A stretch of DNA of 64,000 nt, taken from the sequence record KR014248; one strand, 5' to 3'. Numbering within the stretch: position 1 is the stretch's first letter; each line of letters starts with the position of its first letter. A program made the translations under genes and the position numbers. The notes beneath the pieces were generated by a model that was not told where the DNA came from, did no database searches, and was given only the letters and a program-made list of their open reading frames with translations. Source of the stretch: Escherichia phage vB_EcoM_AYO145A. Shown here piece after piece: positions 2,372 to 21,589 of this stretch.

Positions 2372-3481
2372 ATGACTACTAAAACTAAAGCACAGATTGA
2401 CGCAGAAATTTACAAACTGGTTAAAGAAGGCAAGCTGACTAAAACAGCTATTGCACAGAAGTTCAATACTTCAACCCGTTCAGTTGGTCGTGCTGTAGAG
2501 CGTCATGAAGCAACCTTAAAGGGTAAGAAAAAGGCAGCTTCGACACCAGCTACGAAGACTTTGAAGCAAGTTGCTAAGACCTTTAAGAAGAAAGCTGGCA
2601 AACCAGTTGAAAAGGTCGTTAAAGACGCTGTACAGAAAGCTCCAGTAAATAAACTGCATGAAGCTATGCAGAAAGATGACAAGATTGAGTACATGATTAC
2701 TGGTGACTCTGTAATTATGACTTACGGTTCAGAGTCTGAAATTGTTGAATCTACTCATCCGAACTATCAAGAGATTGTAGTTCATGTTGTGAAAGGTGAG
2801 TTTAAGAAAGCCTTTGAACTGATGAACATTCGTAAGTCTATCGAAAACTTCACTCAGGGTGCTATCACAATCAAAGGTGACAAACTATTCTACGGTGCTG
2901 TTGAGATGCGTTCTACTCTGGTTGACCGTATTCTTCACATGATGAAGACTGGAGATAAAGGTTTTGAACGCCTTGTAATGTTCTTTGAAAAACTGATGGA
3001 AAACCCATCTAAAGATTCTGTAGAACAACTTTGGGGCTTCGTATCTCACCTTGATGTTGAAATTGATGAAGAAGGCTACATCATTGGTTGGAAGAAAGTA
3101 TCTACTCGTGAAGGCAAGCTGGTTGACTCCCACACCTACAGAGTACCTAATGATTTAGGTAACATTGTAGAAATGCCACGTTGGATGGTTGATAATAACC
3201 GTAACGTGACTTGCTCTCAAGGTCTTCATGTTGGTGCTTGGGATTATGTTCGTTGCTTCTCAGGTGATACAATTCTGAAGGTTCGTGTCCATCCACGAGA
3301 TGTTGTATCTGTTCCGACTGATTACAACGATATGAAGATGCGTTCATCCCGTTATGAAGTTGCAGCAATCGTTGATAATCAACGTAAAGTGCTGGAAGCA
3401 TGGGATGGTAAGACTGAAGCTTTGCATGTCATCGTTGGCACTGCTGGAGAACTCATCTCCCAACGTAAACGTGAAATCTAA
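2372..3481 (+). CDS. rIIB: rIIB-like protein
   Basis: 369-aa ORF directly downstream of rIIA; C-terminal VHPRDVVSVPTDYND region matches my recollection of rIIB; synteny. Confidence 0.6.
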   Translation: MTTKTKAQIDAEIYKLVKEGKLTKTAIAQKFNTSTRSVGRAVERHEATLKGKKKAASTPATKTLKQVAKTFKKKAGKPVEKVVKDAVQKAPVNKLHEAMQKDDKIEYMITGDSVIMTYGSESEIVESTHPNYQEIVVHVVKGEFKKAFELMNIRKSIENFTQGAITIKGDKLFYGAVEMRSTLVDRILHMMKTGDKGFERLVMFFEKLMENPSKDSVEQLWGFVSHLDVEIDEEGYIIGWKKVSTREGKLVDSHTYRVPNDLGNIVEMPRWMVDNNRNVTCSQGLHVGAWDYVRCFSGDTILKVRVHPRDVVSVPTDYNDMKMRSSRYEVAAIVDNQRKVLEAWDGKTEALHVIVGTAGELISQRKREI

Positions 3482-3499
3482 TAAGTAATTTCTTAAAAG

Positions 3500-3528
3500 G
3501 CTGCTTCGGCGGCCTTTTTATTTGTATT
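3500..3528 (+). terminator. rho-independent terminator
   Basis: AGGCTGCttcgGCGGCCT hairpin followed by TTTTTATTT, just after the rIIB stop. Confidence 0.6.
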
Positions 3529-3580: not shown

Positions 3581-4129
3581 ATGAAGAAGTTGATTCTAGG
3601 TTTGTGCTTAATGTTTACAGCACACTTATCTTATGCAGTTGACTGCCCAGAGCTATCAATTAGCCAAAAAGTAAACATGTTAAAAGCTTACCAGTATGGT
3701 GAGAATAACATGGGCAAAGGTTGGGGTATCACTCTAGCTGCTATAGCCTTACAAGAGTCAGAGTTAGGTCTGAAGGTAGAGAATAAAAAGACACACGATT
3801 ATGGTATTTTCCAGAATCACTTGAAGACTGTTGTAAAGCGTAACAAAATTAGCCCTAATGTGGCTAAAAAGAAACTCTTAAGAGACTTTGATTATGCTGC
3901 GAAGGAAACTCACAAAGAGCTTGAGTTTTGGACGAAGGTACATGGTCAACCAAAGTCAAAGAAGACTTTACAAAAAGTTTTAGCATCATATAATGCTGGG
4001 TATTCGTACAAAATTCCTAAAGCTAAGAAATACTCTCAAGATGTCTATAACAATATGAAAGTTATTGCTCAATGTGAATTTGCAACAAACATTTCTAAGG
4101 TAAATCATGAAAAAATTAAGAAAGTCTGA
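3581..4129 (+). CDS. secreted lytic transglycosylase (SLT domain)
   Basis: N-terminal signal peptide MKKLILGLCLMFTAHLSYA; SLT motifs AIALQESELG (catalytic Glu-Ser) and SYNAGYSY. Confidence 0.6.
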   Translation: MKKLILGLCLMFTAHLSYAVDCPELSISQKVNMLKAYQYGENNMGKGWGITLAAIALQESELGLKVENKKTHDYGIFQNHLKTVVKRNKISPNVAKKKLLRDFDYAAKETHKELEFWTKVHGQPKSKKTLQKVLASYNAGYSYKIPKAKKYSQDVYNNMKVIAQCEFATNISKVNHEKIKKV

Positions 4130-4802
4130 TGAAGTCCTGTGTCATGCTTACGACTTGCATCCTCATGAGTTAGGTCTTGATTCCTGTGTATGGACTCCAG
4201 AACAGTGTAGGGATTTTGAAGATACTGCAAGAGAAGTTGTATGTTCACTTGAAGAGTTCCACACATCAGAACCAATTGTGAACGTTGTGGACAAAGAGAC
4301 TGGACAATCTATAGGTGTAAGACGTGACAGCTTAGTCATAGTCAATAAAGACCTTGTAGAAAAAGGTAACCTTATCTTAGCAGACATTGATGGTGTTCTT
4401 ACAAATTTTAATCACGAAGATTACTCAACGGAATTGATTGATGGGTCATTTTCACAGTACACTAATTTGCTTGACTCTGTAAGTGCAAAGCCAACGTATG
4501 TTTTCAATATCATTGATGCAATTGCTAATCATGCTGCCATTGGACTCTTGACAGCTAGAGGTGAATCTCAGAGAATCCCTACTGAGATGTTTTTAAGGCA
4601 TTACATAGAGCATGATTACATGCTTTTTATGCGTGGTTTTGGAACTAACTCTATAAATGCAGAAAGTTTGAAAGTGAGGATGATTCAGTCTTGCATTCTT
4701 CCTTACTTTAATATAGTATGCTTTATAGAAGATACAGAGAAGAATGTTCAGAAGGTAAACAGAATCCTTCCACACATTAAAACCATGTTAGTTAAACATT
4801 GA
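4107..4802 (+). CDS. HAD-like hydrolase, possible nucleotidase
   Basis: 231-aa ORF; LILADIDGVLT resembles HAD motif I (DxDGT/V), but the motif sits unusually far from the N-terminus. Confidence 0.35.
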   Translation: MKKLRKSDEVLCHAYDLHPHELGLDSCVWTPEQCRDFEDTAREVVCSLEEFHTSEPIVNVVDKETGQSIGVRRDSLVIVNKDLVEKGNLILADIDGVLTNFNHEDYSTELIDGSFSQYTNLLDSVSAKPTYVFNIIDAIANHAAIGLLTARGESQRIPTEMFLRHYIEHDYMLFMRGFGTNSINAESLKVRMIQSCILPYFNIVCFIEDTEKNVQKVNRILPHIKTMLVKH

Positions 4803-5278
4803 GAGAAGAACTTATGAACAATATCATTACGGTAGCACTGGACGATACGGCAAACAAATCTGAAGTAGTTCGTAAAATGATTCAAGGTAACTTTGAAGGT
4901 AAAATTTTCCGTGCTGTTAATGTAAAAGCTGATGGTAGCATTCGTGAATATCGTGCATTGTTGAACGTTAAGAAGCACGTAAAAGGTGTTGGTTCAACGA
5001 CTGCACACAAAGAAAACCTGATGACTATCTATGATATGGGTAAGGCTTCAGAGTTAGGTGCTGAAGGTATCGTTAAAGAAGGTGCTCCGTATCGCTCTTT
5101 CAATCTGGAAACTGCTCTTATGCTTTCCTTTACAAGTGGTTCCAAAACAATCACTTATCTCTTTACTGATGCTGCAACGGTATCTGCTATTAAGGATAGC
5201 ACTGTCAAAGCTGGCGTAGTTGCTGCTGCAAAAGCTTCTTCGATGGCTGCGAATATCCTTGCTAAAGTCCTCGGTTAA
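4799..5278 (+). CDS. hypothetical protein
   Basis: 159-aa ORF in co-directional gene string; the start may be the ATG at 4814. Confidence 0.5.
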   Translation: MREELMNNIITVALDDTANKSEVVRKMIQGNFEGKIFRAVNVKADGSIREYRALLNVKKHVKGVGSTTAHKENLMTIYDMGKASELGAEGIVKEGAPYRSFNLETALMLSFTSGSKTITYLFTDAATVSAIKDSTVKAGVVAAAKASSMAANILAKVLG

Positions 5279-5290
5279 GGTTAAGATACA

Positions 5291-5312
5291 GGCTCCTTCG
5301 GGAGCCTTTTTC
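5291..5312 (+). terminator. rho-independent terminator
   Basis: GGCTCCttcgGGAGCC hairpin followed by TTTTT. Confidence 0.65.
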
Positions 5313-5330
5313 ATTTCAGGAGATTGTTAA

Positions 5331-5678
5331 ATGACATTTAAAGAGTTTTGTCAAGCTACTTTCATAATTGTTTTCTTAGTTGGGGCAGGTGTCTGGGGAG
5401 GATACTCTTACAGAGACTACCAAGTTGCTGAAACTGAGCTAAATAATGAGAAACTAATAAGTGTTGCCAAAGATGCTTATCAGGAAGGTTTAGCCACACT
5501 CAGCACCAATTACAAAAATGATTTGAAAGACGTGCTTGCTAAGAATAAGCATACAAAAGAGGTACTAACGTATGAAAAGACTAAGCCAGAGTTTTATAAT
5601 GTTTGTGTTACTGATAATTATGTCAGGGTGTTCAACGAACAAAGTGAACAGTACATTCAAAAACTCCCAAGTAAGTGA
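5331..5678 (+). CDS. i-spanin-like membrane protein
   Basis: 115 aa; N-terminal hydrophobic TM segment (FIIVFLVGAGVWGG) then a polar/coiled region; its 3' end overlaps the next lipoprotein ORF in another frame. Confidence 0.4.
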   Translation: MTFKEFCQATFIIVFLVGAGVWGGYSYRDYQVAETELNNEKLISVAKDAYQEGLATLSTNYKNDLKDVLAKNKHTKEVLTYEKTKPEFYNVCVTDNYVRVFNEQSEQYIQKLPSK

Positions 5679-5841
5679 GAGTGACAAGTACACTCAAGAA
5701 GAGTCAAGATTCACTGTCAAAGGTAATACTGGTAGTGATGTGGCAGCAGCCCTTGAGTTTTATCGTGATGGTTTTTACCAGTGCACAATCAAAGCTAATA
5801 ACCTTATTGATATGATTTTATTAGGAAACAAACAGCAATGA
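5572..5841 (+). CDS. o-spanin-like lipoprotein
   Basis: signal peptide ending in lipobox-like IMSGC; the start may be the internal ATG at 5599; overlaps the upstream membrane-protein gene (Rz/Rz1-like arrangement). Confidence 0.4.
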   Translation: MKRLSQSFIMFVLLIIMSGCSTNKVNSTFKNSQVSESDKYTQEESRFTVKGNTGSDVAAALEFYRDGFYQCTIKANNLIDMILLGNKQQ

Positions 5842-7536: not shown

Positions 7537-8322
7537 ATGGGTATTGTAAAAATTATCAATGGTAATATCTTTGACGCATTTGATAAAGGTAAGTTTGACA
7601 TCATTGGTCATGGTTGCAACTGTATGAATTTCATGGGTGCAGGTATTGCAGCAACTATTTCTAAGCGTTATCCAAAAGTGTATGATACTGATACAGAAGT
7701 TTACCTGTTTGCAGGTGGCATTCGTCACAAACCCTGTGAAAATTTACTAGGTAATTTCTCTGTAGCACGTTTAAAACAAGGTCGTATAGCTAACCTTTAC
7801 ACCCAACTTCATACTGGTAAAGATGCCCGATACAGTGCTTTAGAGTCATCTTTGAAGCAGCTTAACAGATACTGTGAAGTCAATCAGTTGAAGAAAGTTG
7901 GGTTACCTATGATTGGTGCAGGTATCGGTGGGCTAGACCCTCAAGCCGTCACAGTTATCATCAATCAGGTGATGAAGAGTGTAGATGTTTATCTATATGT
8001 CTATGAAGGAGAGATGTACCACAAGTTACGCTCAGGTTGGAAGAACTACTGTGAACCAGAATACTTTGCAGGTGTAGTTGTGTTCACGGATAATGCAGTT
8101 ACCCTCTTCAGACGAAGAAAAGGTAAGATACATCAAAGTAACCCTCCGGTTGAAAAGATGTCTCTAAGTAACGCTCTAGTTACCCACCTGTCGAAGAGCA
8201 ATCACGGGATTGCAGTAACATTTGGCAGTGATGCAGATACTTACATCTATGCAAGAACTGATGAGGATATCGAGACAGTTTTCTCTTCGCCAGAAGTTAC
8301 CTTCTTAGACGCAAAGAACTAA
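7537..8322 (+). CDS. macro-domain protein (TARG1/OARD1/DarG-like ADP-ribose hydrolase)
   Basis: IIGHGCNCMNFMGAGIAATI and GLPMIGAGIGGLDP resemble the TARG1/DarG-type macro signature (H-C-x-x-C...MGAGIA, P-x-IGCG-x-D) as I recall it. Confidence 0.6.
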   Translation: MGIVKIINGNIFDAFDKGKFDIIGHGCNCMNFMGAGIAATISKRYPKVYDTDTEVYLFAGGIRHKPCENLLGNFSVARLKQGRIANLYTQLHTGKDARYSALESSLKQLNRYCEVNQLKKVGLPMIGAGIGGLDPQAVTVIINQVMKSVDVYLYVYEGEMYHKLRSGWKNYCEPEYFAGVVVFTDNAVTLFRRRKGKIHQSNPPVEKMSLSNALVTHLSKSNHGIAVTFGSDADTYIYARTDEDIETVFSSPEVTFLDAKN

Positions 8323-8351
8323 GAAACTTCGTAGGATATTCACAATAGACT

Positions 8352-8398
8352 AAGCCTTTCTTATCTGGTAAATTTTTCAGGTAAGGAGGGCTTTTTCA
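8352..8398 (+). terminator. imperfect hairpin plus T-run
   Basis: AGCCTTTCTTATCTGG ... CAGGTAAGGAGGGCT followed by TTTTT. Confidence 0.4.
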
Positions 8399-8590
8399 TT
8401 TCAGAATTGTGCAGGTATATTTCTATAGAGAAATCTGTAGAGAAAATTTTGAACTCCAAAGAGAAAATTCATTTTCAAACTGTGCAGGTAATCTCCAAAG
8501 ACCTTTTTCATTTTCAAAACGTGCAGAGAAAAATCAGGTCGGGCAAGAAAAATCATTTTAGAATTGTGCAGGTAGGTGGGTGCAGGTGGG
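8397..8590 (+). repeat. four direct repeats CATTTTCARAAYTGTGCAGGTA
   Basis: copies at about 8397, 8470, 8509, 8554, plus GGTGGGTGCAGGTGGGG; non-coding. Confidence 0.6.
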
Positions 8591-8750
8591 GATGTCGCCA
8601 TTTCTCACAAGGCTACCACATCTGAAAAGAAAAGTCAACAGAAAAATTTGTAGCGGATTGAAAAATAATTCTTGATTGTAGTTCTGTTTTGTGGTAGTCG
8701 CGCGCACCCGTTTCATTACAATCTTTGCAAAAATATTTTTAAAATTTTTC

Positions 8751-8779
8751 TTGACTCTTTGAACGGGGTTATCTAGTAT
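8751..8779 (+). promoter_or_regulatory. sigma70-like promoter (TTGACT-N17-TAGTAT)
   Basis: upstream of the first small-ORF cassette. Confidence 0.45.
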
Positions 8780-8842
8780 TTGCATCAACGGGGAGGGAAT
8801 GACCTTCCCCACTAAATAAAGTCCTAAACTGGAGATTCAAAA

Positions 8843-18270: not shown

Positions 18271-18804
18271 CTATAATTGTAGGTTGCATTCTTTACTTAC
18301 CTCTTCAAGTTTAACCTCAGAGTCCTTGAGTCGTTTCTTATGAACTCTGAATCTTAGTAGTGAGATGATGATACCAGCTAAAGGAACAGCATACAAGTAC
18401 CAGATATCATGCACCTTTGCAGTAATCTGTGTAATGGTCAAATCTTGAGCTATGCAGCTAATTGCTGATACTGTCAGTAACATTGCTAAGAAGAACGCCA
18501 GTACCATAACAATACTCAGGCAGCCTCTGGCATGGTGTTCATGCTTAATGCACTTATTCTTTTCGTCAACAACCCTGTTGTAGTCATTTGTAAAGTCTCT
18601 GTAGAAAGCTTTTAAGTATTCTTTATTGTAGCCTTCAAAGCAACCTGTACCGTACCAATAATCACCACCAAAATGAGCTATAATACCGGTATCTCCATTT
18701 GGTTTCGTCACTCTTAAAGAAGTGTGATGGCGAGTATCCTGAAAATCTATCTTGTATCTTTCTTCGTAAATCATTTCCCAACCCCTCTCAATCTTTTGTT
18801 CCAC
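18271..18804 (-). CDS. hypothetical membrane protein
   Basis: 177-aa ORF with two hydrophobic segments. Confidence 0.5.
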   Translation of the reverse strand: MEQKIERGWEMIYEERYKIDFQDTRHHTSLRVTKPNGDTGIIAHFGGDYWYGTGCFEGYNKEYLKAFYRDFTNDYNRVVDEKNKCIKHEHHARGCLSIVMVLAFFLAMLLTVSAISCIAQDLTITQITAKVHDIWYLYAVPLAGIIISLLRFRVHKKRLKDSEVKLEEVSKECNLQL

Positions 18805-21124: not shown

Positions 21125-21589
21125 TTACTTTGGATATACACTGTCAAGATAAATGTCAGCTTCCATTCTACGTCTGTTTTTCAGGCCGTTTGAAGTGACC
21201 TTCTTACCTTTGACTGTAACCTTGTTCCACCACTGCATAGCTTCTGCACAACCGACCTTATTACCAGCATTGTGGCGCTTGATAAATGTGGAATCCTGCA
21301 TAGCCGTGATACCAATGTTGTATGTTTCACTTACCAGTGCATCAAACTCATTCTGAGAAGTTGGAACCTTGATAGATTTGTTCACTGCTGCGACAAACTT
21401 TTCAACATCTGCAAGAAGATACTGTTCAGCCTGTTCAGCAGTAATTTTCATGCCCATCTTAACAGGTTTTCCGTCAATACGGATTGTACCATACCCGATT
21501 GTTGGGATTCCGGCAGAGTCTTCGTAAGCCTCTAACTTCAGACCTTCAAAGAACTTAATAGCTTCTAAACCTTTTCTTGAGAGTTGCAT
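21125..21589 (-). CDS. lysozyme (GH24, T4-lysozyme-like)
   Basis: 154 aa; N-terminal signature LEAIKFFEGLKLEAYEDSAGIPTIGYGT. Confidence 0.8.
   Translation of the reverse strand: MQLSRKGLEAIKFFEGLKLEAYEDSAGIPTIGYGTIRIDGKPVKMGMKITAEQAEQYLLADVEKFVAAVNKSIKVPTSQNEFDALVSETYNIGITAMQDSTFIKRHNAGNKVGCAEAMQWWNKVTVKGKKVTSNGLKNRRRMEADIYLDSVYPK

Follow-up and report, generated by a model that had tools for sequence, protein, structure and literature searches.

In phage lambda, the spanins Rz and Rz1 are a type II inner-membrane protein and an outer-membrane lipoprotein, respectively, which are encoded in different frames of common DNA, offer periplasmic cysteines for intermolecular disulfides and act in the disruption of the outer membrane. 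Rz1, a proline-rich protein of 40 aa, is wholly embedded in Rz. The spanins PseT.3/PseT.2 of phage T4 are organized differently: they are located far from the holin and endolysin genes, in an early/middle region beside a pseT-type gene, and their genes, which overlap by 4 nt, belong to the 'separated' class. For Felix O1, SpaninDB (Kongari et al. 2018) lists an i-spanin at 5330-5678 and an o-spanin at 5571-5841 with an overlap of 107; both Felix01 and wV8 are classified there as 'ovl', with the same coordinates and the same 107-nt overlap. The other family relevant here is Vs.1. A marginal match of vs.1 to the SLT domain was reported in six of six T4-like genomes by Nolan et al. 2006, who suggested 'some role in cell lysis', and the 2010 Felix O1 genome paper describes ORF3 as 'Vs.1 CHP' and lists Vs.1 of Aeh1 as its homologue. 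This 2006 comparative-genomics note was the only source on Vs.1 function obtained from our literature search. As neither the Felix O1 spanins nor any member of the Vs.1 family proved to be the subject of an experiment in the searchable literature, we infer the functions of the spanins and of the Vs.1-like protein discussed below.

Here, we analysed a 64,000-nucleotide window of Escherichia phage vB_EcoM_AYO145A (AYO145A; KR014248), a Felix O1-like myovirus (Felixounavirus). Felixounavirus genomes show 97.7% DNA identity to the window, and 252 records cover at least 80% of the query. The window has the start point of the Felix O1 reference genome and its ORF coordinates match those of the Felix O1 table exactly; all ORFs named in a first-pass annotation of this DNA are present. 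The region of interest very probably belongs to the conserved early/middle region near rII in Felix O1-like phages and harbors two functionally separate things. With high confidence, we explain it as a two-component spanin of the overlapped class and a separate Vs.1-like accessory protein. The features are as follows:

3495..3518, plus strand: Rho-independent terminator after rIIB (10-bp stem with 5 G-C pairs, then a T run)
3581..4129, plus strand: Vs.1-like protein with SLT/GH23 lysozyme fold, predicted to be secreted, Felix O1 gp3, 182 aa (phrog_600, 'unknown function', E 1e-57)
4107..4802, plus strand: PseT-like protein, Felix O1 gp4 (phrog_3970, E 9e-134; annotated 'polynucleotide kinase')
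4799..5278, plus strand: ORF without assigned function, Felix O1 gp5 (phrog_2267, unknown function; Felix O1 table)
5290..5307, plus strand: Rho-independent terminator in the gap between gp5 and the i-spanin (7-bp stem with 5 G-C pairs, then TTTTTC)
5331..5678, plus strand: i-spanin, Felix O1 gp6, 115 aa (phrog_1152 'Rz-like spanin', E 8e-42)
5572..5841, plus strand, +1 frame: o-spanin, Felix O1 gp7, 89 aa (phrog_4180, E 9e-51; phrog_456 'Rz-like spanin', E 6e-5)
21125..21589, minus strand: soluble GH24 endolysin, homologue of Felix O1 gp35 (Pfam Phage_lysozyme, E 1e-40)

NCBIfam returned no meaningful match for any of five proteins.

Gene order, terminators and the endolysin

The first-pass annotation had described the SLT gene and the spanin genes as a lysis-like cluster. 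This grouping does not hold, as two unrelated genes and a terminator keep the SLT gene apart from the spanins. The terminator at 3495..3518 sets rIIB apart from the Vs.1-like gene. Phage Meda carries annotated terminators at this site and at the place matching 5290..5307. The unit bounded by these two terminators thus comprises the SLT gene, a PseT-like HAD phosphatase and the ORF of unknown function, while the spanins open the next unit. The PseT-like gene shares 23 nt with the Vs.1-like gene. By our reading of its sequence, gp4 contains only the HAD-type phosphatase motif ADIDGVL and lacks a kinase P-loop; it resembles the phosphatase half of T4 PseT at the motif level only. We considered gp4 as a true polynucleotide kinase and discarded this assignment, since T4 PseT aligns at the HAD phosphatase motif region only and no P-loop was seen. 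Translation of gp5 probably begins at the ATG at 4814, and the protein has no membrane segment (maximum hydropathy 1.36).

A separate GH24 lysozyme had been proposed at 21125..21589, and this is well supported: the protein scores 139 bits against Pfam Phage_lysozyme and passes the cut-off of 22.3. It has neither a signal nor a TM segment, its N-terminus is not hydrophobic, and it is annotated as 'endolysin glycoside hydrolase' in Meda and as 'Lysin' in Felix O1. The endolysin shares the lysis pathway with the spanins, yet it is encoded 15 kb off on the opposite strand. Published notes on Felix O1-like phages describe their lysis genes as scattered, and RT-PCR on Felix O1 places the peak of each of ORFs 3, 4 and 6 and of lysin 35 at 25 min. 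No holin was found near the spanin/SLT locus. Among the small ORFs of the window, only 18271-18804 on the minus strand is convincingly multi-TM.

An overlapped spanin pair

The i-spanin contains a single hydrophobic segment at residues ~7-25 (5349-5405; KD 2.14) and none elsewhere, and the position of this segment is kept in five homologues. This pattern suggests a topology in which an N-terminal membrane anchor is followed by a periplasmic remainder. The predicted periplasmic domain carries a conserved EK-KP-F-N-C-D-Y-FNE block including Cys92, which is invariant in the alignment. The o-spanin ORF is preceded by the ribosome-binding site AAGAGG, 9 nt upstream. As with all signal-peptide and lipoprotein assignments given here, its lipobox was read from the sequence and its conservation: the signal and lipobox consist of FIMFVLLIIMSG followed by the Cys, with the lipobox IMSG-C and Ser at position +2. 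The codon of this residue, Cys20, is located at 5629-5631. The signal MKRLSQSFIMFVLLIIMSG leads directly into Cys-Ser-Thr, a triplet that is invariant in five homologues, and Asp, the residue of inner-membrane retention, is not present at +2. Ser at +2 predicts sorting to the outer membrane. The mature o-spanin would comprise 70 aa, has no proline and contains a conserved LE-Y-D-C-N-L block with Cys71. Each of the two proteins therefore has one predicted periplasmic Cys, C92 in the i-spanin and C71 in the o-spanin, both of which are invariant; Kongari et al. 2018 give the rule that one or more periplasmic cysteines are available to form an intermolecular disulfide.

The o-spanin gene begins 241 nt inside the i-spanin gene and runs 163 nt past its end, giving an overlap of 107 nt. 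Thus, the proposed pair of a TM-anchored protein and a lipoprotein encoded in a different frame is confirmed by the TM segment, the lipobox and SpaninDB. Its description as a 'classic Rz/Rz1 arrangement' needs correction, as the class is 'overlapped' (P2 lysB/lysC-like), whereas lambda Rz/Rz1 is embedded. In coordinates, lengths, 107-nt overlap, lipobox and Cys pattern, the AYO145A pair equals gp6/gp7 of Felix O1, and the i-spanin and its Felix O1 counterpart in SpaninDB differ by two residues. The AYO145A spanins are the Felix O1 gene pair in a close relative, with no difference of substance. Relatives of this pair are encoded in Mooglevirus, in Kolesnikvirus (phiEa21-4/phiEa104) and in phiEco32-like Kuravirus. 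The i-/o-spanin annotation is also present in many GenBank records, including that of the CPT-annotated phage Meda.

An overlapping ORF of 89 codons may in principle be a chance product of the alternative frame and no gene. Gene callers have missed or truncated 5572..5841 in several GenBank records, and the ORF was left out of RT-PCR testing in Felix O1. We nevertheless regard a chance ORF as extremely improbable. The same overlapped pair occurs in relatives from Mooglevirus, Kolesnikvirus (Erwinia phage phiEa104) and Kuravirus (a podovirus) at 26-39% identity, and the lipobox Cys-Ser-Thr and the one periplasmic Cys per protein are invariant in them; the o-spanin ORF itself is kept, with the invariant Cys-Ser-Thr and the C-terminal block, in relatives at 30-39% identity. 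Judging from these alignments, the recurrence of the pair and its invariant residues in distant relatives is more than chance. Divergence in the overlap zone proceeds at about half the rate of the single-coding flanks, and in the part coding for the o-spanin only, synonymous changes exceed non-synonymous ones (27:17, 7:0, 3:0 and 3:0). Together with the ribosome-binding site and the entry in the curated SpaninDB, this conservation effectively refutes the chance-ORF reading.

With lambda Rz/Rz1, the AYO145A pair has the two-membrane layout, the shared DNA and the available periplasmic cysteines in common, and a role in outer-membrane disruption is expected. Sequence similarity to the lambda proteins is undetectable and, unlike in lambda, the genes are outside any holin-endolysin cassette. 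The o-spanin, longer and free of proline, is unlike Rz1, and the i-spanin differs from Rz in that no coiled coil is predicted (SpaninDB tables). The mechanics of the pair may therefore differ from those of Rz/Rz1. With the T4 spanins, the pair shares the distance to holin and endolysin, the early/middle location and the neighboring pseT-type gene. The gene order relative to pseT is reversed, the overlap of 107 nt contrasts with the separated T4 genes, and the periplasmic Cys counts of i-spanin/o-spanin are 1/1 as compared to 0/2 in T4. Homology to PseT.3/PseT.2 was rejected, as BLASTP gave E values of 18 and 8.3, i.e., no similarity. Because the T4 spanins lack sequence homology, the pseT-like neighbor is at most a positional parallel.

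We propose that the N-terminal helix of the i-spanin would anchor the protein in the inner membrane, while the o-spanin would be lipidated at Cys20 and then sorted to the outer membrane. The conserved C-terminal blocks of both proteins could meet in the periplasm, forming a complex that is probably stabilized by intermolecular disulfides via Cys92 and/or Cys71. The GH24 endolysin, let out by a putative holin, would clear the peptidoglycan mesh first, and the spanin complex would then fuse or disrupt the outer membrane as the final step of lysis.

A Vs.1-like protein with a lysozyme fold

The gp3 gene is preceded by an AGGAG ribosome-binding site, 5 nt upstream. The N-terminus of the protein, MKKLILGLCLMFTAHLSYA followed by VD after the predicted cleavage site, shows the n/h/c layout of a Sec signal, with a predicted signal peptide of residues 1-19 (3581-3637); homologues retain a small residue at -3 and Ala at -1 of the cleavage site. 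Two other readings of this N-terminus were rejected. A SAR endolysin does not fit, as the hydrophobic core of merely ~11-14 residues is too short, and a lipoprotein does not fit either, since position -1 of 'LGLC' (residues 6-9) is Leu and the stretch is too near the N-terminus for a lipobox.

The motifs E-S, G-x-F-Q and Y-N-A-G of gp3 constitute the full SLT/GH23 catalytic set. The putative catalytic Glu59 (codon 3755-3757) is invariant in 14 homologues down to 29% identity, as are Q78, Y137, N138 and G140, whereas S60 and G75 are near-invariant (at least 90% of the 14). The earlier call of a secreted SLT protein with a signal peptide and ES / YNAG motifs is thereby substantiated, and so is the statement that the phage encodes two muralytic folds of different classes, the SLT-type protein and the GH24 endolysin. 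Against Pfam SLT (PF01464), gp3 yields an E value of 7.9e-4 and 19.4 bits, under the gathering cut-off of 21.3, while Vs.1 of the T4-like phage ime09 scores above it with 23.8 bits. A single-sequence search of the PDB with gp3 gave no match at E up to 1. A profile search of the PDB returned EtgA as the best match (E 2.4e-4) with the E-S motifs aligned and also reached goose lysozyme.

The AF2 model of gp3 has a pLDDT of 84 and a pTM of 0.79. In a Foldseek search against the PDB, the best 45 matches all adopt a lysozyme fold, and nearly all of them are GH23 or goose-type lysozymes; the top matches are goose-type lysozymes, EtgA, MltE, Slt70-type enzymes and phiKZ gp144. The matches to solved structures are weak (best E 7e-3, TM ~0.5), and those to phage proteins named 'SLT domain-containing' in BFVD reach E 2e-8 with a TM of 0.70-0.74.

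By BLASTP, gp3 and ime09 Vs.1 share 32% identity over 174 aligned columns (E 1e-16), and tblastn with gp3 finds matches in at least 2,139 phage records, T4-like 'vs.1' genes included. The family is found in Felix O1-like, T4-like and Vi1-like myoviruses. On this similarity, gp3 is a homologue of T4 Vs.1, with which it shares the length of ~180 aa, the predicted N-terminal signal peptide and the E-S, G-x-F-Q and Y-N-x-G motifs. The neighborhoods differ, as the gp3 gene is located beside rIIB and the PseT-like gene and T4 vs.1 beside regB and vs. Moreover, members of the Ounavirinae have a conserved Cys pair, C22 and C165, which the T4-type Vs.1 proteins lack. EtgA, IagB/IpgF, VirB1 and P19 of plasmid R1 are, like gp3, small GH23 proteins that consist of a single domain and carry a Sec signal. 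Unlike these secretion-system transglycosylases, gp3 is linked to no secretion apparatus and to no known activating partner. Its homology to them appears distant, and we do not claim membership in that group.

Possible roles of the Vs.1-like protein

We picture gp3 as a small periplasmic protein that is exported via Sec, adopts a GH23 fold and retains its catalytic motifs intact. Most likely, it would act as a low-level lytic transglycosylase that cuts or remodels murein locally during mid-infection, and because of this low-level remodelling its function would be an accessory one, neither that of a lysis endolysin nor that of a virion enzyme. An endolysin of a lysis cassette was rejected, as no holin is nearby, terminators and two unrelated genes separate gp3 from the spanins, and the GH24 endolysin is separate. 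In T4, an intact vs.1 does not rescue lysis in e and t mutants, and the Vs.1 family is therefore not a redundant endolysin.

A role as a true accessory of the lysis pathway, in which a periplasmic pool of gp3 speeds sacculus destruction or frees trapped spanin complexes at the onset of holin or endolysin action, would group the protein functionally with the neighboring spanins, as the first-pass annotation proposed. The predicted export, the motifs of an intact catalytic site, the 25-min peak together with i-spanin and lysin in Felix O1, and the position of the gene 1.2 kb upstream of the spanins in AYO145A, Mooglevirus and Kolesnikvirus all fit this idea, as does the proposal of Nolan et al. 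for vs.1. The intervening genes and terminator speak against it, however, and in T4-like phages and Ackermannviridae the Vs.1 homologue adjoins no lysis gene. With the phenotype of the T4 mutants also weighing against it, we consider this role possible, although unlikely. It was further suggested that one of the two muralytic enzymes serves in injection. SLT domains are common in tail or internal virion proteins of many phages, and the weak Foldseek matches of gp3 include LT_GEWL domains of tape-measure and internal-core proteins. A murein hydrolase that is associated with the virion or acts in injection is nonetheless highly improbable, because the predicted cleavable Sec signal with its conserved A-x-A-type site would take gp3 out of the cytoplasm, where virions assemble, and because Felix O1 gp3 is missing from the mass-spectrometry list of structural proteins. 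The small, single-domain protein is also encoded in the early/middle region beside rIIB.

This same neighborhood can be taken to favor a different function. In this reading, gp3 retains the lysozyme fold, mainly binds and may take part in superinfection or lysis-inhibition signalling as a regulatory or murein-binding factor of the periplasm: the gene adjoins rIIA/rIIB, ime09 vs.1 is within ~2 kb of rI, and similarity to enzymatically proven SLT proteins is marginal. Against this, homologues down to ~30% identity keep the catalytic Glu and each of the three SLT motifs invariant, as expected of an active enzyme, and we judge a mainly binding protein improbable. Returning to the transglycosylase, we suggest tentatively, and with considerable doubt, that the Vs.1-family protein is an active periplasmic enzyme with a specific, so far unrecognized role in infection. 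If so, it may open the murein mesh for spanin complexes or other envelope-spanning phage assemblies or, alternatively, condition the sacculus for rapid lysis, and the Vs.1 family would represent a fourth, accessory lysis component in large virulent myoviruses. The scientific interest of the locus lies in the role of this family, i.e., a predicted secreted protein of muralytic fold conserved across thousands of virulent myoviruses.

The features themselves are real but ordinary and already known: a catalogue entry exists for the spanins and an annotation for the endolysin, and since 2010 the SLT-like ORF has been recognized as a Vs.1 homologue. Their practical value is in annotation, as many Felixounavirus records still use 'hypothetical' for these genes. 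In several records the start of the o-spanin is shortened, by which the signal peptide is lost, and some records label the Vs.1 homologue 'RegB'.

Gene order around the SLT and spanin genes

The 2.8 kb around the locus share 97-98% DNA identity with dozens of Felixounavirus (Felix O1-like, Ounavirinae) genomes, and at least 80% of this query is covered in 252 phage records. The ORF coordinates of the window agree with the published Felix O1 table, and the window thus starts where Felix O1-type genomes are conventionally opened.

Gene coordinates in the published Felix O1 table
1-2292, rIIA
2372-3481, rIIB
3582-4130, ORF3
4108-4803, ORF4
4814-5278, ORF5
5331-5678, ORF6
5572-5841, ORF7

Terminator-like hairpins at 3495-3518 and 5290-5307, sites that are annotated as terminators in phage Meda, enclose a three-gene unit coding for a Vs.1-like SLT protein (ORF3), a PseT-like HAD phosphatase, whose gene overlaps the Vs.1-like gene by 23 nt, and an unknown ORF. 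The spanin genes start the unit following terminator 5290-5307. In T4-like phages and Ackermannviridae, the Vs.1-like homolog lies away from the lysis genes. Lysis genes are described as scattered in notes published on Felix O1, Moogle and Meda. By RT-PCR, Felix O1 ORFs 3, 4 and 6 and the lysin ORF 35 were all maximal at 25 min, a pattern compatible with a common role but no proof of one. The first-pass annotation had proposed a lysis-like cluster at 3581-5841. While its genes are present, terminator 5290-5307 and the two genes between the SLT gene and the spanins argue against a single cluster, and the region can be termed a 'lysis cluster' only loosely.

The product of 4107-4802 ('polynucleotide kinase') carries an HAD phosphatase-type motif (ADIDGVL) only; its similarity to T4 PseT is confined to the phosphatase motifs, and no kinase P-loop is visible in its sequence. 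In Meda, the counterpart of this gene is split into two ORFs. Further downstream, the ORF-free gap 8323-8842 contains a 19-22 nt motif in four direct copies (8396-8574). The 64 kb hold no further copy of the motif (chance expectation, 0.04 matches), and the repeats may serve as operators, as a promoter or as iterons.

Copies of the TCATTTTNRAAHYGTGCAG(GTA) motif, just past the strong terminator 8352-8393
8396, direct copy
8469, direct copy
8508, direct copy
8553, direct copy

An overlapped spanin pair of the Felix O1 family

ORF 5331-5678 has one hydrophobic segment (residues about 7-25). ORF 5572-5841 lies in the +1 frame relative to it, shares 107 nt with it and starts with MKRLSQSFIMFVLLIIMSG followed by CST, which reads as a lipoprotein signal with Ser at +2. 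We compared the matching region from Mooglevirus Sf16, Kolesnikvirus phiEa104 and the podovirus ShigP1 (Kuravirus, phiEco32-like), in all of which a lipoprotein ORF overlaps an i-spanin-like ORF. At 26-39% identity, these relatives keep the i-spanin block E-K-x-x-P-x-F-x-N-x-C-x-x-D-x-Y-x-x-x-F-N-E with an invariant Cys (window C92), the o-spanin lipobox Cys-Ser-Thr and the o-spanin block L-E-x-Y-x-D-x-x-x-x-C-x-x-x-x-N-x-L, again with an invariant Cys (window C71). Divergence from Sf16 amounts to 0.13 per site in the doubly coding 107 nt versus 0.21 and 0.28 in the single-coding flanks, and synonymous to non-synonymous changes in the o-spanin-only part are 27:17 versus Sf16 and 7:0, 3:0 and 3:0 in closer relatives. 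The i-spanin matches the PHROG 'Rz-like spanin' (E 8e-42) and the o-spanin, weakly, a spanin family (E 6e-5). Judged from its sequence, the overlapping pair is real and a predicted spanin. As each subunit has one periplasmic Cys, C92-C92 and/or C71-C71 dimers would be expected; a heterotypic disulfide between i-spanin and o-spanin may also form.

The membrane anchor and out-of-frame lipoprotein described in the first-pass annotation are thus borne out, whereas its 'classic Rz/Rz1' arrangement is not, since the pair is 'overlapped' and that of lambda embedded (Kongari et al. 2018, PMC6139136). The window pair would act in the manner of the lambda proteins but has no sequence similarity to them, and the window o-spanin is not proline-rich. 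The pair represents the Felix O1 spanin family itself. In the supplementary tables of Kongari et al. 2018 (PMC6139136), the Felix01 pair (NC_005282.1; i-spanin 5330-5678, o-spanin 5571-5841, 107-nt overlap) is classed as a two-component spanin of the 'ovl' (overlapped) type, and spanins of wV8, UAB_Phi87 and phiEa21-4 are entered as well. According to these tables, about 66% of the i-spanin periplasmic domain is helix, without any predicted coiled coil, and the mature o-spanin (70 aa) has little regular structure. The window has the Shine-Dalgarno string tabulated for Felix01, and its i-spanin differs by two residues. The pair carries i-spanin/o-spanin annotations in many GenBank records and also appears in several genome papers; spanin pair, endolysin and SLT-like protein are all catalogued already. 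The window spanins show no similarity to T4 PseT.3/PseT.2 (E 18 and 8.3), and in both phages the spanin genes adjoin a pseT-type gene.

Several GenBank records place the o-spanin start codon too far into the gene, e.g. at 'MSGC...' (L002 3721-3942; L007 2573-2767; L005, phiEa104, 3648-3776). The late start drops the signal peptide, and the DNA holds the full ORF with signal and lipobox. A macro-domain gene (Tk.4-like, Appr-1-p processing) directly follows the o-spanin in ShigP1 (L006 2939-3379) and phiEa104 (L005 3784-4566); that of the window (7537-8322) is located 1.7 kb further on. Otherwise unrelated phages share this linkage of spanin and macro-domain genes.

Sequence and fold of the Vs.1-like protein

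ORF3 (3581-4129, 182 aa) is preceded by an AGGAG ribosome-binding site. Its N-terminus, MKKLILGLCLMFTAHLSYA followed by VD, reads as a Sec signal (charge, hydrophobic core, small-x-small). Family-1 lytic transglycosylases are recognized by three signature motifs (E-S, G-x-F/M-Q and Y-N-x-G), and ORF3 carries all of them. Among 14 homologs, down to 29% identity, E59, Q78, Y137, N138 and G140 never vary, S60 and G75 hardly vary, and Ala is kept before the predicted cleavage site. ORF3 falls just under the Pfam SLT threshold (19.4 versus 21.3 bits, E 7.9e-4). Its AlphaFold model is confident (pLDDT 84), and the closest solved structures found by Foldseek are all lysozyme-fold, nearly all GH23 enzymes or goose-type lysozymes, with EtgA, MltE, Slt70-type enzymes, MltF and phiKZ gp144 among the matches. 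These matches are weak (best E 7e-3, TM about 0.5); predicted viral structures named 'SLT domain-containing protein' match far better (E 2e-8, TM 0.70-0.74). The best PDB sequence for the family profile is EtgA (E 2.4e-4), with the catalytic E-S aligned. The SLT-type protein with signal peptide and E-S/Y-N-A-G motifs was therefore correctly recognized at first pass. Ounavirinae family members share a Cys pair (C22 and C165; CPEL ... QCEF) that T4-type Vs.1 lacks; by sequence, it is consistent with a periplasmic disulfide.

A tblastn search revealed relatives in 2,139 phage records. They come from Felix O1-like phages, T4-like phages, whose gene is annotated vs.1, Ackermannviridae, and myoviruses of Aeromonas, Vibrio and Acinetobacter. 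The match in T4-like ime09 is gene vs.1, flanked by regB and vs (32% identity, E 1e-16); the alignment takes in a comparable signal peptide, and ime09 Vs.1 exceeds the Pfam SLT threshold. The Felix O1 genome paper lists ORF3 as 'CHP; Vs.1 (Aeh1) 31.6%', and we found no functional study of Vs.1-family proteins in the searchable literature. Homologs in phiEa104 (gp007, L005 62-574; 46% identity to ORF3, E 2e-46) and Salmonella phage bering_84 (L009 3402-4019) are labeled 'RegB endoribonuclease', which looks like a misannotation propagated from the T4 neighbor gene regB.

Endolysin, holin candidate and probable role of the Vs.1-like protein

The separate GH24 lysozyme noted at first pass (21125-21589, minus strand) is upheld by Pfam Phage_lysozyme (E 1e-40), and its sequence contains no export signal. 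As the holin is reported as not identified in Felix O1 or Meda, ORF 18271-18804 (minus strand, 177 aa) may be considered a candidate. It shares its strand with the endolysin gene, which it follows 2.3 kb downstream, and has no Pfam match. The protein combines two strong transmembrane segments with a charged C-terminus and corresponds to Felix O1 gp27, 'membrane protein'.

From anatomy and homology, we infer that vB_EcoM_AYO145A follows the standard three-step model of the spanin literature (endolysin, holin, spanin). Soluble GH24 endolysin would build up in the cytoplasm and be let out by a putative holin; once murein is degraded, the periplasm-spanning i-spanin/o-spanin complexes would be freed, draw the inner and outer membranes together and destroy the latter. 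T4 e and t mutants fail to lyse with vs.1 intact, and the Vs.1 family therefore cannot be a redundant endolysin. An injection enzyme, as suggested at first pass, is unlikely, as ORF3 is predicted to be Sec-exported and mass spectrometry of Felix O1 virion proteins did not identify gp3. Most probably, the Vs.1-like protein is a low-activity periplasmic lytic transglycosylase that would act locally and earlier than the steps above; its architecture is comparable to EtgA and other specialized transglycosylases of secretion systems. Its activity may serve lysis, envelope remodeling or some other purpose. Overall, the first-pass observation is confirmed and its interpretation partly supported. T4-like and related myoviruses normally pair a GH24 endolysin with a Vs.1-type GH23 protein, and this combination is not peculiar to vB_EcoM_AYO145A.
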